Source of the DNA: Dehalococcoidia bacterium
GTDB taxonomy: Bacteria; Chloroflexota; Dehalococcoidia; Lucifugimonadales; UBA3495
Direction of reading: 5' to 3'
Assembly (NCBI GenBank): GCA_965261925.1
Contig: OZ253486.1
Coordinates: forward strand, 1,030,134-1,094,133
Length of the DNA: 64,000 nt
The notes under the pieces were generated by a model that searched no databases, was not told the DNA's origin, and was given only the letters and a program-made list of their open reading frames with translations. The position numbers and the translations under genes are program-made. Numbering within the stretch: position 1 is the first letter of the stretch; each line of letters opens with the position of its first letter. This document shows positions 7,479-45,210 of this stretch, one piece after another.

Positions 7479-9761
7479 CTAGCTGCCGGCTCCCTCCAGG
7501 TTCTTCATGTGGTTCATGGCGCTGCCGGCCCGGAACCACGCGATCTGGGGGTCGTTGAGGGTATGACGCAGGTTGAGCGTCTCCTCGGAGCCGTCGGCGT
7601 GCTTGAGGACCGCCTGCACCGGCTGACCGGGGGTCAGGTCGCTGAGGCCCACGAGGCTCATGCGGTCGTCTTCCAGGATGCGATCCCAGTCCGACGGGTC
7701 CTCGAAGGTGAGGGGCAGCAGCCCCTGCTTCTTGAGGTTGGACTCGTGGATGCGGGCGAAGCTGCGGGTGATGATCGCCGCGGCGCCCAGCATTCGGGGT
7801 GATAGGGCGGCGTGCTCGCGGCTGGAGCCCTCGCCGTAGTTCTCGTCGCCGATGGCGACCCAGCGGATGCCCTGGGCGCTGTACGCGCGGGCGATCTCCG
7901 GTATCGGCATGATCTCCTCGCCGGAGAGCTGGTTCTTGCCGGTTCCGGTTTCGTCGGTATAGGCGTTGTTGGCGCCGAGGAACATGTTGTCGCTCAGGTT
8001 GTTGAGGTGACCACGGAAGCGCAGCCACGGACCTGCCGGAGAGATGGAGTCGGTGGTCGTTTTGCCCTCGGTCTTCACCAGGATGGGCACGTCTTCAAAG
8101 TCGTTGCCGTCCCAGGGCGCCCACGGATCCAGCACCTGCAAACGGTTGCTGCTGGGGTCCACGCGGACATCGACGTCGCTGCCATCTTCCGGCGGCTCTA
8201 CGTACATATCGACGCCCGGGTCGAAGCCGGTGGGCGGCACTTCCGGGGCCGCCGTCGGCGGCTGGAGCATGAACTCGTTGCCGTTGGCATCCACCAGCGG
8301 ATCGGTGAGCGGGTTGAACGCCAAGCTGCCGCCCAACCCCATGGCCACCGCCAACTCGGGGCTGGCGATGAAGTTCATGGTGCCGGCGTTGCCGTCGTTG
8401 CGGCTGGGGAAGTTGCGGTTGTAGGAGGTCACGATGCTGTTTTCGGTGCCGCGGGCTTCCGGTCGGTTCCATTGGCCGATGCAGGGACCGCAGGCGTTGG
8501 CCAGCACGGTGGCGCCGATGGCTTCCAGCGCAGCCTGCTGTCCGTCGCGCTCGATGGTGGCGCGGACCTGCTCGGAACCGGGGGTTACCAGCAGGCCGGA
8601 AGCGGCGGAAACACCCCGGGCAGCGGCCTGGCGGGCTACGTCGGCGCAGCGTTCCATGTCTTCGTACGAGGAGTTGGTGCAGCTGCCGACCAGCGCCACG
8701 GATACTCGCTCCGGGAAACCCTCCCGCTGCACCTCGGCGGCTAACTCGGAAATCGGCCGCGCCCGGTCGGGCGAGTGGGGTCCGGTGACGTGGGGTTCTA
8801 GGGTTGACAGGTCGATTTCCACAATCTGGTCGTAGAACTGTTCCGGCTGCTGCTCGACCTCTGGGTCCGACTGGAGCAGGTGGACATACTCTTCCGCGAT
8901 GGCAACGAGGTCTCCGCGGCCGGTGGCGCGGAGGTAGGTGGCCATGCGCTCATCGTAGGGGAACACGTCGCCGGTGGCTCCCAGCTCGGCTCCCATGTTG
9001 CAGATGGTGCCCTTGCCGGTGGCGGAAATGGAGGCGGTGCCGGGGCCGAAGTACTCGATGATGGCGTTGGTGCCGCCCGACACGGTCAGCTCGTAGGCCA
9101 ACTTGATGATGACATCCTTGGGGGCCGTCCAACCGCTCATGGAACCGGTGAGCTTGACGCCGATGATGCGAGGATAGCGCACCTCCCAGGGGAGGCCGGC
9201 CATCACGTCCGCCGCGTCCGCCCCGCCCACGCCGATGGCCAGGGAACCCAGGCCGCCGCCGTTGACGGTGTGGGAGTCAGTGCCGATGATGAGGGAGCCG
9301 GGGAAAGCGTACTTTTCCAGCACTACCTGGTGGATGATCCCGGAACCGGGCCTCCAGAAGCCCATGCCGAAACGCCGGCTCGCGGATTCCAGGAACTGGT
9401 AGACCTCGTTGCTCTCGTTGAGGGCATCCTGGAGGTCAGAGGAAGCGCCCACGCGTGCCTGGACCAGGTGGTCGCAGTGGACGGTGGTCGGGACGGCGAC
9501 GCGATCACGGCCCGATTGCATGAACTGCAGGATGGCCATCTGCCCGGTGACGTCCTGGTGGGCCACTCGGTCGGGCCGCAGGTTGATGTAGCTGTCGCCC
9601 GGGCGCAAATCGGCGTCGTCGACGTCGTCCAGGTGGGATAGCAGCACCTTCTCGGTCATAGTCAGCGGGCGGTTGAGCCTGGCCCGCACCTGGGTCAGTT
9701 TTTCGTCCATCTTGCGGTAGGTTTCCCGCACGAATTCCGGAGTGGAATCGATGTTGCTCAT
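7479..9761 (-). CDS. acn: aconitate hydratase (about 760 aa, mitochondrial-type length)
   Basis: MSNIDSTPEFVRETYRKMDE...RPDRVAHQDVTGQMAILQF...VHCDHL...GTDSHT...CTNSSYED...NACGPCIGQW...SYNRNFPSRNDG. Start chosen at the ATG at 9761 behind a GGAGGAG RBS. Confidence 0.93.
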   Translation of the reverse strand: MSNIDSTPEFVRETYRKMDEKLTQVRARLNRPLTMTEKVLLSHLDDVDDADLRPGDSYINLRPDRVAHQDVTGQMAILQFMQSGRDRVAVPTTVHCDHLVQARVGASSDLQDALNESNEVYQFLESASRRFGMGFWRPGSGIIHQVVLEKYAFPGSLIIGTDSHTVNGGGLGSLAIGVGGADAADVMAGLPWEVRYPRIIGVKLTGSMSGWTAPKDVIIKLAYELTVSGGTNAIIEYFGPGTASISATGKGTICNMGAELGATGDVFPYDERMATYLRATGRGDLVAIAEEYVHLLQSDPEVEQQPEQFYDQIVEIDLSTLEPHVTGPHSPDRARPISELAAEVQREGFPERVSVALVGSCTNSSYEDMERCADVARQAAARGVSAASGLLVTPGSEQVRATIERDGQQAALEAIGATVLANACGPCIGQWNRPEARGTENSIVTSYNRNFPSRNDGNAGTMNFIASPELAVAMGLGGSLAFNPLTDPLVDANGNEFMLQPPTAAPEVPPTGFDPGVDMYVEPPEDGSDVDVRVDPSSNRLQVLDPWAPWDGNDFEDVPILVKTEGKTTTDSISPAGPWLRFRGHLNNLSDNMFLGANNAYTDETGTGKNQLSGEEIMPIPEIARAYSAQGIRWVAIGDENYGEGSSREHAALSPRMLGAAAIITRSFARIHESNLKKQGLLPLTFEDPSDWDRILEDDRMSLVGLSDLTPGQPVQAVLKHADGSEETLNLRHTLNDPQIAWFRAGSAMNHMKNLEGAGS

Positions 9762-9878
9762 TGTTTTCGCTCCTCCTCGAGTGTAGCCCCGCTGGGTCGG
9801 CCCGACCGGCGCTTTGTCAACCACGAAAGTGAACTGTGACACAGAATGCCGCGGCGGGCGACCACGCCCGGGGAGATG

Positions 9879-10706
9879 TTACAGGGTTACCTTTTCGCCA
9901 TACTTTTCGGTGAGGTTCATGAAGAGGCGATGACGCCGGGGGTCGTTGGTTGGGTTTTCTGCGCGGCGCAGGTAGATGCGGTACACGGTTGCCAAATCGT
10001 CGTCCCGCAGCCAGATGGCGTAGCTGGGCAGCCCGTTGCCCAGGGTGCGGTACAGGAACTCGATCTGGCGAATGCGGCCGAGCTGCAAGGCCGCCTGGCC
10101 GTCGCCGTCGGTGGCAAGCAGGGCGATATCACCGGCTGGGTGGACCCTCCCGCTGCCGTCTACGAATTGCAAGTTTGCCAGCGTGGCCGGAATGGAGATG
10201 GTGGCAGCCGAGTTGTGCACCATGACCACGGCTTCGTCCAGCCCGACGGCGGCATCGTCCATCCCACAGCTACAGTCCGCGAGGATACGGCGCAGCAGGT
10301 CAATGTCGGCCGGAGGATTGGGTCCTGCGAGACGGTCGACGGGAACCGCCGTCTCGGCCAGGTTGTCGGACAGCGCCTGGTTCAAATTGTCTGGGATGGC
10401 GGCGAAACGCACGCGACCTCGGCGGGTGACGGCGGCTTCGCCCTCGATGGAGCCGTAAAGCGCCTTTTCGCCGGACCAACGGCGGACGACATCGAAACGC
10501 GGCCCGTAGGTGCAGCCGAGAATGCAACCGGCCGTGGTGACCTGCACGCGTTCGCCGCCCACGCGGTGTGCGGCGGAGCGAAGATCGCTCAGCACGGCGT
10601 CAGCATTGCGGCCGCGATGATACCAGCGCCCGCACCCGTACTCGTCGGTGCAGACGACAACGTTCACTTCAGGGCGAGCAGACCGCTGCGGGTCGGATGC
10701 GAACAT
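9879..10706 (-). CDS. fusion protein: thioredoxin-like [2Fe-2S] ferredoxin domain plus ChuX/HutX-like domain
   Basis: The N-terminus VVVCTDEYGCG...TTAGCILGCTYGP has the Cx5C...Cx3C pattern of thioredoxin-like 2Fe-2S ferredoxins. The C-terminal 145 aa is clearly homologous to ORF 38325..38774 (shared ...GLPSYxxWxRDxD...RxYLR...P.RH..FM.L..KY). Confidence 0.7.
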   Translation of the reverse strand: MFASDPQRSARPEVNVVVCTDEYGCGRWYHRGRNADAVLSDLRSAAHRVGGERVQVTTAGCILGCTYGPRFDVVRRWSGEKALYGSIEGEAAVTRRGRVRFAAIPDNLNQALSDNLAETAVPVDRLAGPNPPADIDLLRRILADCSCGMDDAAVGLDEAVVMVHNSAATISIPATLANLQFVDGSGRVHPAGDIALLATDGDGQAALQLGRIRQIEFLYRTLGNGLPSYAIWLRDDDLATVYRIYLRRAENPTNDPRRHRLFMNLTEKYGEKVTL

Positions 10707-10793
10707 CAGAGAAAGTGTGAACCGTTAAACGTGCGCCCGGCAGCCAAGCGCCGGGCGCACGACGGAGTCGGTGTACGCCGGGCGGCGCGACGA

Positions 10794-11036
10794 CTACTTG
10801 CTGAAGTAGTCGTAGTTTATCTTGATATAATCTTCGTACATGCCCGGTACGGCTTCCTCGGCGAAGATCGCCGTGACCGGGCAAACCGGTTCGCAGGCAG
10901 CACAGTCGATGCACTCATCGGGACTGATGAAGTACATGTCATCGTCGTCGGTGGTGTAGATGCAGTCCACCGGGCAAACGTCGACACACGCGGCGTCTTT
11001 GACACCCACGCATGGCTCGGTAATGATGTAGGTCAT
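10794..11036 (-). CDS. fdxA: ferredoxin (7Fe/2x[4Fe-4S]-type, 80 aa)
   Basis: MTYIITEPCVGVKDAACVDVCPVDCIY...CIDCAACEPVCPVTAIF; ATG at 11036. Confidence 0.9.
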   Translation of the reverse strand: MTYIITEPCVGVKDAACVDVCPVDCIYTTDDDDMYFISPDECIDCAACEPVCPVTAIFAEEAVPGMYEDYIKINYDYFSK

Positions 11037-11192
11037 AGCGGCATTCCCTCGGGTGATGTGGTGCGGGTTAACAGTGGCAAATCGAACTTGGGGCCACAAC
11101 TCACGGGTGCGAAAATTATAGCACGGCGTATAGGCAATGCAAACGAGATCGAGGCGTTTGCCGGGTTGGCGGAACCCATTTGCGCGCCCGAT

Positions 11193-11627
11193 TCATACCC
11201 GGGTGAAACGCTTCTTGGTGGACAGGGTTACGAAGGTCTGGGTCTTCTGCACGCCCTCAATGACACCGATGCGAGTGCGCAGGAAGTCGCCCAGGCTTTC
11301 GGCGGATTCCAGGGCGGTCCACACGAATACGTCGTAGGGCCCGGTGGCCACGACGACATAGTGGGCTTCGTCGAGGTCGGCGATGCATTCGGCGACGGCG
11401 TCGGACTTGCCCGGGCCGGTTTCCAGGCCGATGAGGGCGGTGGTGCCGTAACCCATTTTTTCGAGGTTCGGGACTGCCACCACATGGACGATGTCTTCTT
11501 TGATGAGGCGGCGCAGCCGACGTCTCACGGTGCCTTCGCTCACGCCCACTGCGCGTGCAATCTTGGCGTTGGACGCACGCCCGTCCGATTGCAGGATACC
11601 GATAATCTTCAGGTCAAGCTCGTCCAT
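11193..11627 (-). CDS. Lrp/AsnC family transcriptional regulator
   Basis: MDELDLKIIGILQSDGRASNAKIARAVGVSEGTVRRRLRRLIKEDIV... is an HTH_AsnC domain, followed by a C-terminal RAM/AsnC_trans_reg domain. Confidence 0.9.
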   Translation of the reverse strand: MDELDLKIIGILQSDGRASNAKIARAVGVSEGTVRRRLRRLIKEDIVHVVAVPNLEKMGYGTTALIGLETGPGKSDAVAECIADLDEAHYVVVATGPYDVFVWTALESAESLGDFLRTRIGVIEGVQKTQTFVTLSTKKRFTRV

Positions 11628-11850
11628 TGGTTGGCAGACTCCGTGCTCGGGATGCAATCACATTTCTACGCCAGGCAGCGTAGATATTCGGCATACGATA
11701 TTATTCGTTCGGACTGCGGTTGTCAATCATCAATGGGACAATGATATACTTTATCGTTTTATTCGCGACGAATTCGCTGCTTTTTCGCCGCTTTCAACGC
11801 ATCATAAACGTAATAGATACTGGGATCTCGGGGAGTTCCCGTTTTGGAGA

Positions 11851-36213: not shown

Positions 36214-37083
36214 ATGGACAGCACCACCGGGCAAATGACCGCCCCCGACCGAACCGCCGTCGAGGTTGCCCGGGCAGTACAGTCTGTGATGACCCCGGAC
36301 ACGGTGATACTGTTCGGTTCGCGGGCCCGGGGAGATCATCGCCCCGACTCCGACGTCGATCTGCTGATCATATCCAACTCCGGCTCAGTCGTAGCCACGG
36401 GGCGAGCCACGCGAGCGGCAACGGAGTACTTCCGACTGCATCCCCCTTGGCTCCGCGTGGACGTGGTGACGATGGACGTGCACCGGTTCAACTATTGCCG
36501 CCGCGCCAAGAATCACGTGGCCGCGCAGGCGTTCCGAGACGGGGTACTAATGAGCGAGGGAAACCTGGATCTTTCCGGCCGGCACGATGACGGTTACCCC
36601 GACAGTTGGCCGGATGTGAGAGAGCGGCTACAGGCCGCCTACCGACACACGCGCGCGTTCAATCACCTGATAGATTTTGAGGAAAGCGACCAGGAGATGT
36701 ACGGCTTCCACGCCCAGCAGGCCGTGGAGAATGCCATCAAGGCGTGGCTGTCCGCCGCTAACCTGAACTACCGCAGCGTCCATGACCTCAGGGAGGTCGC
36801 CGACCAAATTCTGCGCGACCCTACTCAGGCCAACACCCTGGCAGCAGCACAACTCCGATCGCTGATCGACTATACCTCGTTCCAAAACCCTGACCGTCCC
36901 GGGGAACAGGACAACTGGCTTACCCGCTACGCTGTTTCCTATCGATACAGCGGCGCGTCCTTCCGCATGGACGACATTGATAAAGACCGTTTCATCAGAG
37001 AGATCAACCTGGCCGTCGGCACTTTCATCAACCGAGCGTACGAGCTCACCGGTACGAACGAATCAGACGTGACCCGAGGCTAA
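36214..37083 (+). CDS. fused nucleotidyltransferase (MNT) plus HEPN domain protein
   Basis: The N-terminus ...ILFGSRARGDHRPDSDVDLLI is the GSxxxGx..SDxDL minimal NTase motif. The C-terminus ...FHAQQAVENAIKAWL...SVHDLREVA...YAVSYRY... is HEPN-like (PF05168-type). Confidence 0.7.
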   Translation: MDSTTGQMTAPDRTAVEVARAVQSVMTPDTVILFGSRARGDHRPDSDVDLLIISNSGSVVATGRATRAATEYFRLHPPWLRVDVVTMDVHRFNYCRRAKNHVAAQAFRDGVLMSEGNLDLSGRHDDGYPDSWPDVRERLQAAYRHTRAFNHLIDFEESDQEMYGFHAQQAVENAIKAWLSAANLNYRSVHDLREVADQILRDPTQANTLAAAQLRSLIDYTSFQNPDRPGEQDNWLTRYAVSYRYSGASFRMDDIDKDRFIREINLAVGTFINRAYELTGTNESDVTRG

Positions 37084-37728: not shown

Positions 37729-37799
37729 CGAATACCCAACGTTTGACGCATCCCCTCCAATCTGCTAACCTGTAACCGTTAACAACTGAACCCTCGCAA

Positions 37800-38020
37800 T
37801 CGCCCGCCGGTGTCCCGTCTGTCGCGCCCACATTCCGGAGCGTACAACGGGCTGAAAAGGAAATCCGGTGAGAATCCGGTGCGGTCCCGCCACTGTAATT
37901 GGTGAGACGCCCTCCTGGTCACGTCCCTGACGTGAAAAGCAAGCCACTGCCCGCTTCAGGCGGGTGGGAAGGCGGAGGAGCGTCGCTATCAGCCATCAGC
38001 CAGGAGGCCTGCCAGCGGGT
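37800..38020 (+). promoter_or_regulatory. cobalamin (B12) riboswitch
   Basis: Core aaaAGGaAAtCCGGTGAGAATCCGGtGCGGTCCCGCCACTGTaa includes the B12 box GCCACTG. The downstream conserved segment is cAGCCAGGAGgCCTGCC. The boundaries are approximate. Confidence 0.85.
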
Positions 38021-38105
38021 GTATTCCAGCTGCACTTCGTGGAACGAGTGAGCGGATTGCCGGCATATCCAGAAGACCACCGGACTCCAGCCGTAGGCTC
38101 CATTA

Positions 38106-38324: not shown

Positions 38325-38774
38325 ATGAGCGACGCGACGGACCTAATGCTCCGCGAAATACTCGAAGAATGCCGCGATGGGGCCGACGGCATCGGATTCA
38401 ACGAGGTCGTGGTCATGCTGGAAAGCACGGCCGCATCCGCCGAGGTCTACATGGATTTCGACGACTTGCGATTCACCCCCGACGGGCGGATCGTCACCCT
38501 CATGGTGCCCGGCGGCACCCACATGCACCTGGACATGTCCAAAATCCGCGAGGCGGAGTTCATTCACACCACCAACGACCAGGGCCTCCCCTCGTACCAG
38601 CTGTGGATGCGCGACGGCGATGGCAATCCGGCCATGCGCGTCTACCTCCGCAAGTCGGATGTCGACGCCACCAACCCGTCGCGTCACAGCTTCTTCATGG
38701 CCCTGCTGGACAAGTATCCGAACAAAATCGCCCTCCCTGCAGAGGCCTACGGGTCGGCCGGTGAGCACCCGTAG
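38325..38774 (+). CDS. ChuX/HutX-like (tetrapyrrole-binding fold) protein, first gene of the B12-riboswitch operon
   Basis: 149 aa with a GAGGTG RBS. ...EFIHTTNDQGLPSYQLWMRDGDGNPAMRVYLRKSD...SFFMALLDKY resembles, from memory, ChuX ...SILFFNKEGSAMLKIFLGRDD...FHTLAASL. It is a paralog of the C-terminal domain of 9879..10706. Confidence 0.6.
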   Translation: MSDATDLMLREILEECRDGADGIGFNEVVVMLESTAASAEVYMDFDDLRFTPDGRIVTLMVPGGTHMHLDMSKIREAEFIHTTNDQGLPSYQLWMRDGDGNPAMRVYLRKSDVDATNPSRHSFFMALLDKYPNKIALPAEAYGSAGEHP

Positions 38775-38839: not shown

Positions 38840-40216
38840 ATGACCTCGGCCGTCGTAATCGCCGGCGTTCGCTCCGGCGTCGGCAAGACCACCATCGCCA
38901 GCGGCGTCATGGGCGCCCTGGCCCGCCGTGGTCTGCGGGTCCAGCCCTTCAAGGCCGGCCCCGACTACATCGACCCCTCGTATCACACCATCGCCTGTGG
39001 CGTGCCTTCGCGGAACCTGGACACCTGGATGCTGCCCCATCCGGTGGTCTCCGAGCTGTTCCACCGGGCGGCCGGCGCGGCGGACATCGCCGTGGTCGAG
39101 GGTGTCATGGGCGTCTTCGACGGCCACTCCTCGCTGGACGAGGATGGCTCCACGGCTGAGCTGGCCAAGCTGCTGGACGCTCCGGTGATCCTGATCGCCG
39201 ATGCCGGCAAGGTGGCCCGCAGCGTGGCCGCCGAGATCCTGGGCTACCAGCAGTTCGACCCCGACCTGCGCATCGCCGGCGTGATCCTCAACGGCGTGGG
39301 CAGCGAGCGGCACCTGGAGTTCTGCCAGCCGCAGATCGAGGCCACCACCGGCCTGCCCGTGGTGGGCTGGCTTCCCCGCCGCGACGACTTGGTCCAACCC
39401 GAGCGCCATTTGGGCCTCATTCCCACCGCCGAAGGCACTGTTCTCAACAACTGGTACGACGCCCTCAACGCCCAGATACAGCAGACCATCGACCTGGACG
39501 CCATCACCCGCATCGCCGCCACCGCCGGCCGGCCCGACGCGACCTCGGAGGGGGTCTTCCCGGCGACGCCCCAGGCTGCGCGAACCTCCATCGCCGTTGC
39601 CCAGGACCGCGCCTTCTCGTTCTACTATCAGGACTCCCTCGACCTCCTGGCGGCATGGGGAGCGGAGATCATCCCCTTCTCGCCGCTGGACGACGCATCC
39701 CTGCCCCACGGCGTGGGCGGCGTTTACCTGGGCGGTGGATTCCCCGAGCTGTTCGCCGAGGAGTTGTCCGGCAACGCCGGTATGCTGGAATCGATGCGCG
39801 AGGCAATTTCGCGCGAACTGCCGGTATACGCAGAGTGCGGCGGCCTGATGTACCTGGGCCGCAGCCTCTCCGATCTGGACGGCCGGCAGTTCCCGATGGT
39901 TGGCGCGATCCCCGTAGTATCCTCCATGGAGGGTCGGCGGCTGCACCTCGGCTACCGCGAGGTTGCGGCCTGTGGCGACGGCCCGCTGCTGATGGCCGGC
40001 CAGCAGGTGCGCGGCCACGAGTTCCACTGGTCGGTCCTGCAGGAACCGCCCGACGCCGCCAGCGCCGCCTACCAGGTGGTCAACCAGGATGGACGGCCCG
40101 AGGGCTTCCGCGCCGGCAGCGTGTGGGCCTCCTACATCCACGTGCACCTGGGCAGCCGCCCCGGCCTGGCGCAGCGCTTCGTCGACACCTGCGCCGCCGC
40201 AAACGGAGGGCCGTAG
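38840..40216 (+). CDS. cbiA: cobyrinate a,c-diamide synthase
   Basis: ...VVIAGVRSGVGKTTIASGVMGAL...FKAGPDYIDPSYH..., then a C-terminal GATase domain ...YAECGGLMYLG...GHEFHWS. Confidence 0.9.
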   Translation: MTSAVVIAGVRSGVGKTTIASGVMGALARRGLRVQPFKAGPDYIDPSYHTIACGVPSRNLDTWMLPHPVVSELFHRAAGAADIAVVEGVMGVFDGHSSLDEDGSTAELAKLLDAPVILIADAGKVARSVAAEILGYQQFDPDLRIAGVILNGVGSERHLEFCQPQIEATTGLPVVGWLPRRDDLVQPERHLGLIPTAEGTVLNNWYDALNAQIQQTIDLDAITRIAATAGRPDATSEGVFPATPQAARTSIAVAQDRAFSFYYQDSLDLLAAWGAEIIPFSPLDDASLPHGVGGVYLGGGFPELFAEELSGNAGMLESMREAISRELPVYAECGGLMYLGRSLSDLDGRQFPMVGAIPVVSSMEGRRLHLGYREVAACGDGPLLMAGQQVRGHEFHWSVLQEPPDAASAAYQVVNQDGRPEGFRAGSVWASYIHVHLGSRPGLAQRFVDTCAAANGGP

Positions 40217-40891
40217 ATGGTCGCTATCCAAGCCGAGGCTCCTGTCAAAGCACCGAGCGACGCGAGGCCGCCGTCCGATTTCGACGGCTACTTCCTCATC
40301 CCTCTCTCCGAGTTCGGGAGGTCATTGGACAGTCCGGATCTGGATGCGTGGTTCGAGGGATTTGCCGAACGAAACAAGGACGCGGTTGGTGATTTCGAGA
40401 TCACCGCGCAGGGAGAATTGAAGATTATGCCGCCCACTGGGGTGCCCGGCGAATGGTTTGAGCTCGAAATGGCGTCAGCTGTATTGGTGTGGGCGCGTGG
40501 CTATGGTGGCAGAGCCGGCGGAGCCACGGCGCGTTTCATCATGCCAGATGGCTCGCGTCTCGGACCCGATGCCTACTGGATATCCCAAGAACGTTGGGAC
40601 GCGCTTCCGGCTGGCGACCGCATGCCCTTCGCTGCTGTCGTACCTGACTTCGTCGTCGAGATTGTTTCCCCGTCCAACCGGCACGCAGAGATGGTAGGAA
40701 AAGTACAGCGGTACCTGGAGGGCGGCGCGCGCCTGGTTTGGGTGATCCATCCGCCCAATCGGACCGTCACCGTCCATCGCCCCGGCGCGGATCCGGAGAC
40801 CCTGCATGACCCCGATATGCTGGGCGGCGGCGACGTGCTGCCGGGTTTCGCGTTCAACGTGCAAGAACGAATCTTCGACAACGTACCCTGA
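40217..40891 (+). CDS. Uma2 family endonuclease (DUF820), copy 2, inside the B12 operon
   Basis: ...FEITAQGELKIMPP...GPDAYWISQERWD...AVVPDFVVEIVSPSNRHAEMVGKVQRYLEGGARLVWVIHPPNRTVTVHR...LPGFAFNV. Its ATG directly abuts the cbiA TAG (TAGATG). Confidence 0.85.
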   Translation: MVAIQAEAPVKAPSDARPPSDFDGYFLIPLSEFGRSLDSPDLDAWFEGFAERNKDAVGDFEITAQGELKIMPPTGVPGEWFELEMASAVLVWARGYGGRAGGATARFIMPDGSRLGPDAYWISQERWDALPAGDRMPFAAVVPDFVVEIVSPSNRHAEMVGKVQRYLEGGARLVWVIHPPNRTVTVHRPGADPETLHDPDMLGGGDVLPGFAFNVQERIFDNVP

Positions 40892-40933: not shown

Positions 40934-41503
40934 ATGACAACGCAGGAAACGCGCCACGGCCCGCAGTCCGTTCGCGGCCCGCGCATCAACAAGGGCCTGG
41001 TCATCGTCAACACCGGCAACGGCAAGGGCAAGACCACTGCGGCCATGGGCGTGCTGATGCGGGCCTGGGGCCGCGACATGAAGGTCGTGATGCTCCAGTT
41101 CATCAAGCACACCACCGCCAACTTCGGCGAGCAGCGGGCGGCCCAGAAGATGGGCATCACCGTGCGCGCCATGGGTGACGGCTTCACCTGGCGCTCCCAG
41201 GACCTCGACGCCAGCGCCGATTTGGCCCGCGCCCTGTGGGAGGACGCCAAGGAAGTCATCGCCGCCGGCGAGTTTGACCTGGTCATTCTCGATGAGTTCA
41301 CCTACCCGATGCACTACGGCTGGCTCCCCGTTGAGGACGTCGTCGAGGCGCTCAAGGCCCGTCCCGAGATGCAGCATGTCATCATCACCGGCCGCCACGC
41401 TCCCGAAGCACTGGTCGAATACGCCGATCTGGTCACCGAGATGAACGTCGTCAAGCACCCTTACGACGCCGGCATCAAGGCCCAGCCGGGCATCGAGTTC
41501 TGA
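40934..41503 (+). CDS. cobO: cob(I)yrinic acid a,c-diamide adenosyltransferase
   Basis: ...[19 protein letters not shown]...VMLQFIK...[12 protein letters not shown]...ITGR.AP..L...ADLVTEM...KHPY..G..AQ.GIEF. Confidence 0.9.
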
Positions 41504-44619: not shown

Positions 44620-45210
44620 ATGACCACCGTACAGCATGGCTCAAAGCTCACCCTGGCTGAATACCGCGCCCTGGAACCGATTGACGAAGGCGTGTGGGAA
44701 CTGTCCAATGGAGAGTTATTTGAGATGGCGCCGCCTACCTACGACCATCAAATCTTGATCGACTACCTTGTTCGGATGATCAATAATTTCCTTGACACCA
44801 CGAATCCCTTATTGGGCACCATAGTGTCCGGGATTGGGGTCATCCTGTCGGAAACCCGTGCGCCCACGCCGGACGCAGTATATTTGAGGGCGGAAAGAGC
44901 GCACCTGATCCAGGGAAGTTTTGTCGAAGGTGCGCCGGACCTTGTGATCGAAGCACTTTCCAGCGACCGAGCGCGCGACCTCGTGCTGAAACGAGGCTGG
45001 TACGATGAAGCTGGCATACCGGAATACTGGACCGTGGATCCGGTTAACAACTCGATCAATGTGCTGGAGCGTACGCAAACGGGATATGTTCAGCGTGCGG
45101 CTCTAAGTCGTGGAGATATTTTGACTACGCCCGCGATTCCGGGATTCGAACTGCCACTGAATATGCTGTTCGATAATGCTGCTCGTTATCTCCCCGGTCG
45201 CCAGCGCTAA
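44620..45210 (+). CDS. Uma2 family endonuclease (DUF820), copy 3, inside the B12 operon
   Basis: ...WELSNGELFEMAPP...TPDAVYLRAER...GAPDLVIEALSSDRARDLVLKRGWYDEAGIPEYWTVDPVNNSINVLE...IPGFELPL; GGGAGG RBS. Confidence 0.85.
   Translation: MTTVQHGSKLTLAEYRALEPIDEGVWELSNGELFEMAPPTYDHQILIDYLVRMINNFLDTTNPLLGTIVSGIGVILSETRAPTPDAVYLRAERAHLIQGSFVEGAPDLVIEALSSDRARDLVLKRGWYDEAGIPEYWTVDPVNNSINVLERTQTGYVQRAALSRGDILTTPAIPGFELPLNMLFDNAARYLPGRQR

Follow-up and report, generated by a model that had tools for sequence, protein, structure and literature searches.

A ferredoxin-like and ChuX-fold fusion protein of a SAR202 bacterium as a candidate single-chain form of a two-gene cobalamin accessory module

The window analysed here, a stretch of 64,000 nucleotides (nt) from a Dehalococcoidia bacterium (contig OZ253486.1), encodes P0001, a 275-amino-acid (aa) fusion of a thioredoxin-like, putative iron-sulfur (Fe-S) domain (the N-domain) with a domain of the ChuX/HutX/HemS fold (the C-domain). 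The source organism is an uncultured marine or sponge SAR202 bacterium (Dehalococcoidia). Our comparison of related genomes revealed that both halves of this protein occur in sister genera as separate neighbouring genes, an N-gene and a ChuX-like gene, which head cobalamin (cob) operons under the control of a cobalamin riboswitch. By Rosetta-stone logic, this split form suggests that the module has a function shared by its two halves, and a link between the module and cobalamin metabolism is quite likely. The original prediction had proposed that the fusion handles corrinoids or heme; its corrinoid part became much stronger because both halves are separate riboswitch-controlled genes heading cob operons in sister genera, although P0001 itself lies outside the cob operon. 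We regard P0001 as a good candidate for an electron-supplying corrinoid handler. The fuller reading, in which P0001 would be a single-chain version of a two-gene cobalamin accessory module with ferredoxin-driven corrinoid reduction for CobO, is tentative, its chances lying close to balance and on the lower side. The elements on which the argument draws are the following.

9879..10706, minus strand: gene of the 275-aa fusion P0001, stop codon included (open reading frame (ORF) list, translation, homologs, and the ratio of nonsynonymous to synonymous substitution rates (dN/dS))
10347..10706, minus strand: N-domain, residues 1-120, thioredoxin-like, DUF1636-like putative [2Fe-2S] ferredoxin (invariant Cys, Foldseek)
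10650-10652, 10632-10634, 10524-10526 and 10512-10514, minus strand: codons of C19, C25, C61 and C65, respectively
10305..10346, minus strand: variable linker, approximately residues 121-134, joining the two former genes; poorly conserved in the alignment, with one short helix only in the model
9882..10304, minus strand: C-domain, residues 135-275, ChuX/HutX/HemS fold, paralog of P0002 (BLASTP, Foldseek, common core residues)
37791..38030, plus strand: cobalamin riboswitch RF00174 (Rfam, 91.2 bits against a gathering score of 31.5), controlling P0002 and the cob operon
38325..38774, plus strand: P0002, stand-alone ChuX-like paralog and first gene of the cob operon
38840..40216, plus strand: cbiA/cobB (Pfam)
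40934..41503, plus strand: cobO (CobA_CobO_BtuR match at 40988..41500)

The split form was traced in a sample of 101 genomes from 27 genera of the window's GTDB family; these genomes are kin, and the family counts are descriptive, not a statistical test. The N-domain was present in 40 of the 101 genomes (10/27 genera), a stand-alone ChuX-like gene in 69 (22/27 genera), and a cobB match in 94. At least nine other genera encode the N-domain separately, as a stand-alone homolog of 110-130 aa, and its nearest stand-alone homolog (P0250, 45% identity) was located directly upstream of a ChuX-like gene, followed by cbiA/cobB, cobO, cobT, cobS, and cbiB. At locus L050, the riboswitch was followed by the N-gene, the ChuX-like gene, cobB, cobO, cobT, cobS, and cbiB, and this N-gene aligned with residues 14-116 of P0001 (37% identity, E=5e-24). 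The same arrangement, riboswitch included, recurred at L057, L059, L061, L062, L064, and L067, and the gene order from the N-gene through the ChuX-like gene to cobB and onward was also found at L054 and L072-L075, loci outside the riboswitch scan. Riboswitch, N-gene, and cobB followed one another without a ChuX-like gene at L052, L056, L060, and L071, with the same gene order at L070 (outside the scan), while the N-gene preceded a ChuX-like gene and CbiZ in genome G417, and two further genera showed the order ChuX-like gene, CbiZ, cobB. Among 20 fetched regions, 11 carried N-gene, ChuX-like gene, cobB, cobO, and onward, four carried N-gene and cobB onward, one carried N-gene, ChuX-like gene, and CbiZ, three had the N-gene alone, and the last contained the G422 fused gene. 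A cobalamin riboswitch preceded the N-gene in 9/9 scanned loci in which it headed a cob operon, as well as at L050 and L052 (11 loci). By coordinate comparison, 66 of the 69 stand-alone ChuX-like genes lay less than 1 kb from cobB on the same strand; where the gap measured approximately 0.9 kb, CbiZ stood in between at both loci checked. The genomes without a cobB match had neither an N-gene nor a ChuX-like gene (7/7). In genus g244 (L063, L065, L066, and L069), the stand-alone N-gene is found away from the cob operon, and at L065 (3137..5352, plus strand) it directly follows two Opp/Nik-type ABC permease genes, which may serve metal or peptide transport.

The cysteine pattern that had first drawn attention to the N-domain was found throughout the family: C19, C25, C61, and C65 (Cx5C ... 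Cx3C), together with C145, were invariant in 23 diverse fused proteins, and the equivalent four Cys were invariant or nearly so in 22 stand-alone N-genes. For the fold search, an AlphaFold2 model of P0001 (predicted local distance difference test score (pLDDT) 77.6; predicted template-modeling score (pTM) 0.65) was compared with the PDB by Foldseek. The search recovered both parts of the suggested architecture, a thioredoxin-like Fe-S fold and a ChuX fold, whereas P0001 itself had no Pfam match and no NCBIfam match. The N-domain matched 5abr, 1m2a, 1f37, and complex I NDUFV2-type (V2) chains with probabilities of 0.98-1.0 and E-values of approximately 1e-2, and its template-modeling (TM) scores against small ferredoxins were 0.5-0.62. 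When the N-domain profile was run against the PDB, 1f37 and 5abr ranked first, though not significantly (E 0.2-0.5), and the CX3C of the family aligned with the CX3C of Aquifex Fd4 (1f37) in the profile alignment. The anticipated relationship to DUF1636 (PF07845; gathering cut-off, 31.6 bits) was borne out below threshold in stand-alone relatives of the N-gene (25-28 bits, E=3e-6 to 2e-5, model positions 2-62 only) and more faintly in more distant relatives (13-20 bits), but not in P0001, as PF07845 had no match in this protein or in the whole genome. The second half of the N-domain, which in the model has four additional strands at residues 70-103, lies outside the DUF1636 match. These profile and fold comparisons make the N-domain a divergent DUF1636 relative, which would most likely hold a predicted [2Fe-2S] cluster on Cys19, Cys25, Cys61, and Cys65.

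A module of this kind could also act without redox chemistry, escorting intermediates of the pathway or salvaged corrinoids between CbiA, CobO, and CbiZ, with a Cys4 domain that would be structural, metal-binding (cobalt, zinc), or redox-sensing. Many genera, including g227, g233, and g246, have the ChuX-like gene without the N-gene, the ChuX-like gene is linked to cobB and CbiZ whether or not the Fe-S partner accompanies it, and the name given to N-gene relatives by the Joint Genome Institute (JGI) is only "predicted metal-binding protein". However, the four invariant Cys have the spacing seen in [2Fe-2S] thioredoxin-like ferredoxins and lie in the same fold, and where a ferredoxin fold is joined to a domain that binds a ligand, electron delivery to that ligand would be the simplest interpretation. 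We consider such a non-redox escort unlikely.

The resemblance between the C-domain and the ORF at 38325..38774, initially noted by eye, proved to be true paralogy. BLASTP aligned residues 137-275 of P0001 with residues 8-137 of P0002 (36% identity, E=1e-29), covering the full length of the C-domain. In Foldseek, the C-domain matched 3fm2 (Ava_4353; E=9e-9, TM 0.77) as well as 6u9j, 2ovi, 5exv, 4mf9, and 2j0r (probability 1.0), matches that by name comprise ChuX, HutX, LFE_1968, PhuS, HemS, and ChuS; the profile of the stand-alone ChuX-like proteins reached 3fm2 with E=7e-8 over its full length. The expected match to the Pfam family ChuX_HutX (PF06228) was seen in cob-linked stand-alone relatives of P0002 (approximately 55% identity), which exceeded the gathering score of 25 with 31.1, 28.5, 29.4, 30.7, and 25.7 bits, but P0002 remained below it (21.4 bits) and P0001 had no match. 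It is through P0002 (E=1e-29) that P0001 is joined to the relatives passing PF06228. By predicted structure and these transitive sequence links, the C-domain belongs to the ChuX/HutX/HemS fold. Nineteen positions were conserved and identical across fused C-domains, stand-alone ChuX-like proteins, and P0002 orthologs (P0001 numbering: L142, C145, E158, M162, P227, S228, Y229, W232, R243, Y245, L246, R247, S249, N255, R258, H259, F262, L265, and Y269). The Arg, Tyr, His, and Cys residues among them are conceivable contacts for a metal-containing tetrapyrrole rich in carboxylates, and the ligand of the ChuX-fold domain would most likely be an incomplete corrinoid, namely cobyrinic acid a,c-diamide, cobinamide, or cobyric acid, rather than heme. 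The stand-alone ChuX-like proteins additionally have an invariant His pair (GGTHxHL), the second His of which aligns with a His in 3fm2 and 3na2.

In the split form, the module adjoins cbiA/cobB and cobO, representing the two steps that flank cobalt reduction, and its recurring neighbours cbiA/cobB, cobO, and CbiZ all need cobalt reduction or adenosylation. Cobinamide salvage through CbiZ also needs prior adenosylation, and we know of no dedicated cobalt-reduction enzyme described for the oxygen-independent B12 pathway. In our proposal, the ChuX-like domain would hold an incomplete corrinoid, while a cellular ferredoxin, FdxA for example, would recharge the Fe-S domain. The Fe-S domain would donate one electron to the cobalt, moving it from Co(III) or Co(II) in the direction of Co(I), after which CobO, the adenosyltransferase, would adenosylate the reduced corrinoid. 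The module would thus do without flavin what CobR or flavodoxin does at this step. That P0001 has kept a part in cobalamin metabolism after fusion and relocation is somewhat more probable than not. The specific mechanism, a reductase or a presenter whose chemistry is surmised from the two folds, ranges from doubtful to nearly balanced. The most inclusive formulation must be called doubtful: that the pair of DUF1636-like ferredoxin and ChuX-fold protein, and P0001 with it, would be a flavin-independent, ferredoxin-driven corrinoid reductase and presenter that supplies the missing Co(II)/Co(III)-to-Co(I) step feeding CobO in the oxygen-independent pathway and in cobinamide salvage, and would represent the first corrinoid recruitment of the ChuX/HutX fold.

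The original prediction had called for a survey of the fusion architecture across genomes, which located the fusion in the genomes of one family and its split form in sister genera. In a collection of 5.8 billion proteins, P0001 had 131 relatives, nearly all of 273-281 aa apart from a few truncated entries, with 59-96% identity; one of them is annotated as [quoted passage not shown]. A HMMER search of 1.84 billion cluster representatives returned only 29 P0001 matches, the fusion forming a single 50%-identity cluster. Among GTDB species genomes, the fused gene was intact at 46 loci, all in Dehalococcoidia/SAR202 metagenome-assembled genomes (MAGs), several with sponge-type bin names. Pairwise dN/dS was approximately 0.2 in both domains, indicating that the fused gene is under purifying selection, and it evolves faster than its neighbours (60-86% identity across loci, compared with 88-100% for aconitase, ferredoxin, and Lrp). 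Long reading frames containing both domains were confined to the window's genus (7/9 genomes, its own included) and one genome of another genus, which has retained the N-gene and the ChuX-like gene in stand-alone form as well; in the window's genome, a profile search found no stand-alone N-gene, the N-domain occurring only in the fusion. All fused copies formed one clade in the domain trees (C-domain 100/100, N-domain 100), placed among or beside the stand-alone genes of the family; the N-domain clade is nested among them. The nearest tree neighbours of the two halves were largely the same split pairs, with weakly supported placement. This pattern indicates that two adjacent genes fused once and that the product moved and diverged quickly: a single fusion event followed by fast divergence.

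Several observations weigh against a corrinoid role for the fused copy or for the module as a whole. The P0001 gene is not part of the cob operon and lacks a riboswitch, and a scan of 9700..11800 at permissive thresholds found no Rfam family, riboswitches included, around its gene. Of the 94 genomes with cobB, 25 had no ChuX-like match and 54 no N-domain match, meaning that both module genes are individually dispensable in relatives, and two complete genomes of the window's own genus have neither the fusion nor the N-gene. The N-domain profile had no match outside the family in an even sample of 400 other genomes of the class, nor did the ChuX-like profile in an even sample of 300 other genomes of the phylum; all comparative evidence thus comes from genera of one family, and the cases are not independent. 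Three Flavin_Reduct (PF01613, CobR-family) genes are present in the genome, none of them near a cob locus. The stems of the fused clade are long in both domain trees (1.31 and 1.04 changes per site), and in the fused form Ala replaces the second His of GGTHxHL while an invariant His164 has been gained. Given these long stem branches and the altered His, the ligand or role of the fused copy may have changed. The His loss and gain may reflect a change of ligand or of coordination, and the notion that losing an axial His would favour a low-coordinate, more easily reduced cobalt is speculative. A complex prediction for the split pair (score 0.00) gave no verdict and speaks neither for nor against binding.

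The changed ligand residues and the position outside the B12 regulon would also suit a heme handler that arose by a change of function, the fused copy binding heme and its Fe-S domain reducing or breaking it down or releasing its iron. The characterised fold matches (ChuX, HutX, PhuS, HemS, and ChuS) are heme proteins, and one relative carries a chlorite-dismutase-family gene (PF06778) upstream of the ferredoxin. However, this neighbour was seen at one locus only, no heme-uptake or heme-oxygenase genes were found near the fused gene in the window and the related loci, and the 19 core residues are still common to the fused and the cob-linked stand-alone forms. A heme-handling function is improbable on this evidence.

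The cob operon of the window itself begins with the riboswitch and P0002, followed by cbiA/cobB, Uma2, cobO, cobT, cobS, cbiB, Uma2, an aminotransferase, and a phosphatase. The 295 nt that separate the riboswitch from P0002 (38031..38324) yielded no remnant of an N-gene in a maximum-sensitivity hmmsearch of all six frames. The two Uma2-family genes (putative endonucleases) inside the riboswitch-controlled operon are a side observation, the first one displacing cobO from its usual place after cobB; a nucleotidyltransferase-HEPN fusion (MNT/HEPN-like; 36214..37083, plus strand) lies approximately 700 nt upstream of the riboswitch.

40217..40891, plus strand: inserted Uma2 gene (Pfam)
44620..45210, plus strand: second Uma2 gene

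Elsewhere in the window's genome, the ring-synthesis genes are of the oxygen-independent type (CbiC-CbiX-CbiD-methyltransferases-CbiG), and a separate cluster comprises a tetrapyrrole methylase, CobN, a third, distant ChuX-like gene, CbtA, and a ChlI/ChlD-type protein. This third gene, ChuX/LFE_1968/DUF7676-like and encoding 143 aa (L084, 9228..9659, plus strand; G000:C1:2381227-2381658, outside the window), has a start that overlaps the cobN stop, with cbtA and then the chlI/chlD-type gene downstream. Its relationship to the cob-linked ChuX-like family received an hhalign probability of 89% (E=2e-6, 50 columns), and ChuX-fold genes accordingly occupy three cobalamin-related places in one genome. 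Such translational coupling to cobN, followed by cbtA and chlID, would suit a module that helps in cobalt supply or chelation, handing cobalt or the macrocycle to a chelatase instead of acting at the adenosylation stage. The position of the N-gene behind Opp/Nik-type ABC permeases in one genus and the description of DUF1636 as "potentially involved in cobalt insertion" (bioRxiv 10.64898/2025.12.19.695462) point in the same direction. The module is nevertheless found with late genes (cbiA, cobO, cobT, cobS, cbiB, and CbiZ) and not with cbiX, which belongs to the ring-synthesis cluster, rendering a chelation-stage role distinctly improbable.

The immediate neighbourhood of the fused gene, in which the original prediction had noted the ferredoxin, contains the following elements.

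10794..11036, minus strand: FdxA, 7Fe-type ferredoxin of 80 aa (Cys motifs, NCBIfam), a possible, unproven electron donor
11115..11143, minus strand: promoter-like site upstream of fdxA
10731..10760, minus strand: perfect 11-bp G+C-rich stem-loop with an 8-nt loop in the fdx-P0001 spacer, without a T-run after it (read from the sequence)
7479..9842, minus strand: aconitase gene, directly downstream of the P0001 gene (Pfam Aconitase in syntenic loci)

The P0001 gene does directly follow the small ferredoxin gene on the same strand, as had been noted, with a spacer of 87 nt; the ferredoxin has the 7Fe-type motifs Cx7Cx3CP and Cx2Cx2Cx3CP, and its best NCBIfam match is FdxA_Actino (98 bits against a cut-off of 125). 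The aconitase gene starts within 36-120 nt downstream of the P0001 gene. No terminator was called on the coding strand of the fdx-P0001-acn region, the hairpin at 10731..10760 being likewise uncalled, and co-transcription of P0001 with fdx would be possible. Unlike fdxA and P0002, the P0001 gene has no obvious Shine-Dalgarno sequence.

A special meaning of this adjacency found no support. The ferredoxin is a housekeeping gene, its ortholog occurring in 99 of the 101 family genomes, those without the fusion included. In G427 (same genus), G405, and G417, the fdx and acn genes directly neighbour each other across 180-280 nt, with no fused gene between them, and the same spacer in G447 (same genus) holds a 625-aa ORF (L077, 3104..4981, minus strand) that by eye resembles an N4/N6 DNA methyltransferase, which suggests that the spacer tolerates insertions. 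The two most divergent fused copies occur in unrelated contexts. Taken together, the fdx-acn pairs without the fused gene, the methyltransferase in the same spacer, and the divergent copies elsewhere indicate that the fused gene was inserted into an ancestral fdx-acn spacer; its adjacency to fdxA is probably incidental and does not attest a functional link.

These findings also bear on the idea of a partner of ferredoxin and aconitase, for instance in the repair of the aconitase Fe-S cluster, encoded in an fdx-X-acn operon (X being the fused gene). The order icl-dcc-eamA-lrp-fdx-X-acn was kept in 44 of 46 distinct related loci, the intergenic distances are small, and terminator calling gave no clear candidate on the coding strand. 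These loci come from very close relatives, however, and the neighbours are 88-100% identical across them, so the synteny reflects close kinship, while the loci without X, the methyltransferase in its place, and the relocated divergent copies all speak against a dedicated partnership. A functional fdx-X-acn operon was ruled out as the principal explanation by the fdx-acn pairs without X and the other gene in the same spacer, and an aconitase or ferredoxin partner is largely excluded. In one relative, a chlorite-dismutase-family gene (PF06778; L003, 4796..5509, plus strand) lies just upstream of the ferredoxin-fusion-aconitase group; the chlorite-dismutase family includes coproheme decarboxylases. 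Outside these subjects, a group I intron (RF00028, 51 bits) was noticed inside the 23S rRNA gene of G417 (L058, 8335..8600, plus strand).

If P0001 and its split relatives act on corrinoids, the ChuX/HutX/HemS fold, known for heme, would gain corrinoids as a further class of ligand. Deep-ocean waters and sponges harbour SAR202 bacteria in abundance, and the MAGs that carry the related loci are likewise marine or sponge-derived, so a possible role of SAR202 as a B12 supplier would be of ecological interest. An Fe-S protein and a protein of a tetrapyrrole-carrier fold behind a B12 riboswitch offer two concrete and easily expressed candidates for the reduction step or for a corrinoid chaperone. 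The reduction of corrinoid cobalt before adenosylation has been settled in few model bacteria, such as Brucella with CobR (PMC7242693).

Among known systems, ChuX of E. coli O157:H7, HutX of Vibrio cholerae, and the double-domain relatives HemS, PhuS, and ChuS have the fold of the C-domain. ChuX and HutX are small cytoplasmic tetrapyrrole-binding proteins, and the stand-alone relatives described here pass their profile, PF06228. ChuX and HutX belong to a heme-uptake context, whereas the stand-alone forms here accompany a B12 riboswitch, cobB, cobO, and CbiZ, and the fusion accompanies fdxA and aconitase; no fusion to an Fe-S domain was seen in the ChuX/HutX/HemS relatives, unlike in P0001. A literature search for ChuX or HutX with cobalamin or corrinoid found nothing relevant. 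The closest solved structures to the C-domain are Ava_4353 of Anabaena variabilis (3fm2, "putative heme-binding protein") and the LFE_1968-like protein (3na2, PF22684), the "xHL" His of which aligns with the stand-alone forms and is lost in P0001; both are single-domain proteins, unlike P0001.

The N-domain shares its fold with the one-electron carriers Aquifex Fd4 (1f37, 1m2a), Azotobacter FeSI (5abr), and NuoE/NDUFV2, but its sequence similarity to these carriers is not significant (E 0.2-0.6), and it is fused to a ligand-binding domain. DUF1636 has been predicted to be a thioredoxin-like [2Fe-2S] family (PMC4520260), and in Phaeobacter a DUF1636 gene is the riboswitch-controlled first gene of a cobalamin (Cbl) operon (bioRxiv 10.64898/2025.12.19.695462). 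The alphaproteobacterial DUF1636 proteins resemble the stand-alone N-genes in predicted fold, Cys pattern, and position behind a riboswitch at the head of a Cbl operon; this position was found in the stand-alone relatives (11 loci) but not in P0001 itself.

In Salmonella, corrinoid cobalt is reduced by a flavodoxin-CobA route. The step in question lies between the CobB/CbiA product and CobO adenosylation, where cobalt is reduced to Co(I), a reaction assigned to the flavoprotein CobR in the aerobic route (PMC7242693). The flavin-dependent CobR of Brucella would occupy the same pathway position as that proposed for the module, from Co(II) to Co(I) before CobO/CobA. CobR is, however, a Flavin_Reduct protein without homology to the module, which has no flavin domain (a Pfam search of P0001 found no PF01613 match), and the likeness concerns the proposed activity only. 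New in this analysis are the split pair, the evidence that the fusion arose only once, and the finding that its position next to the ferredoxin gene is probably incidental; P0001 and its split relatives join two known folds in a new combination restricted to one lineage, probably with a new ligand.

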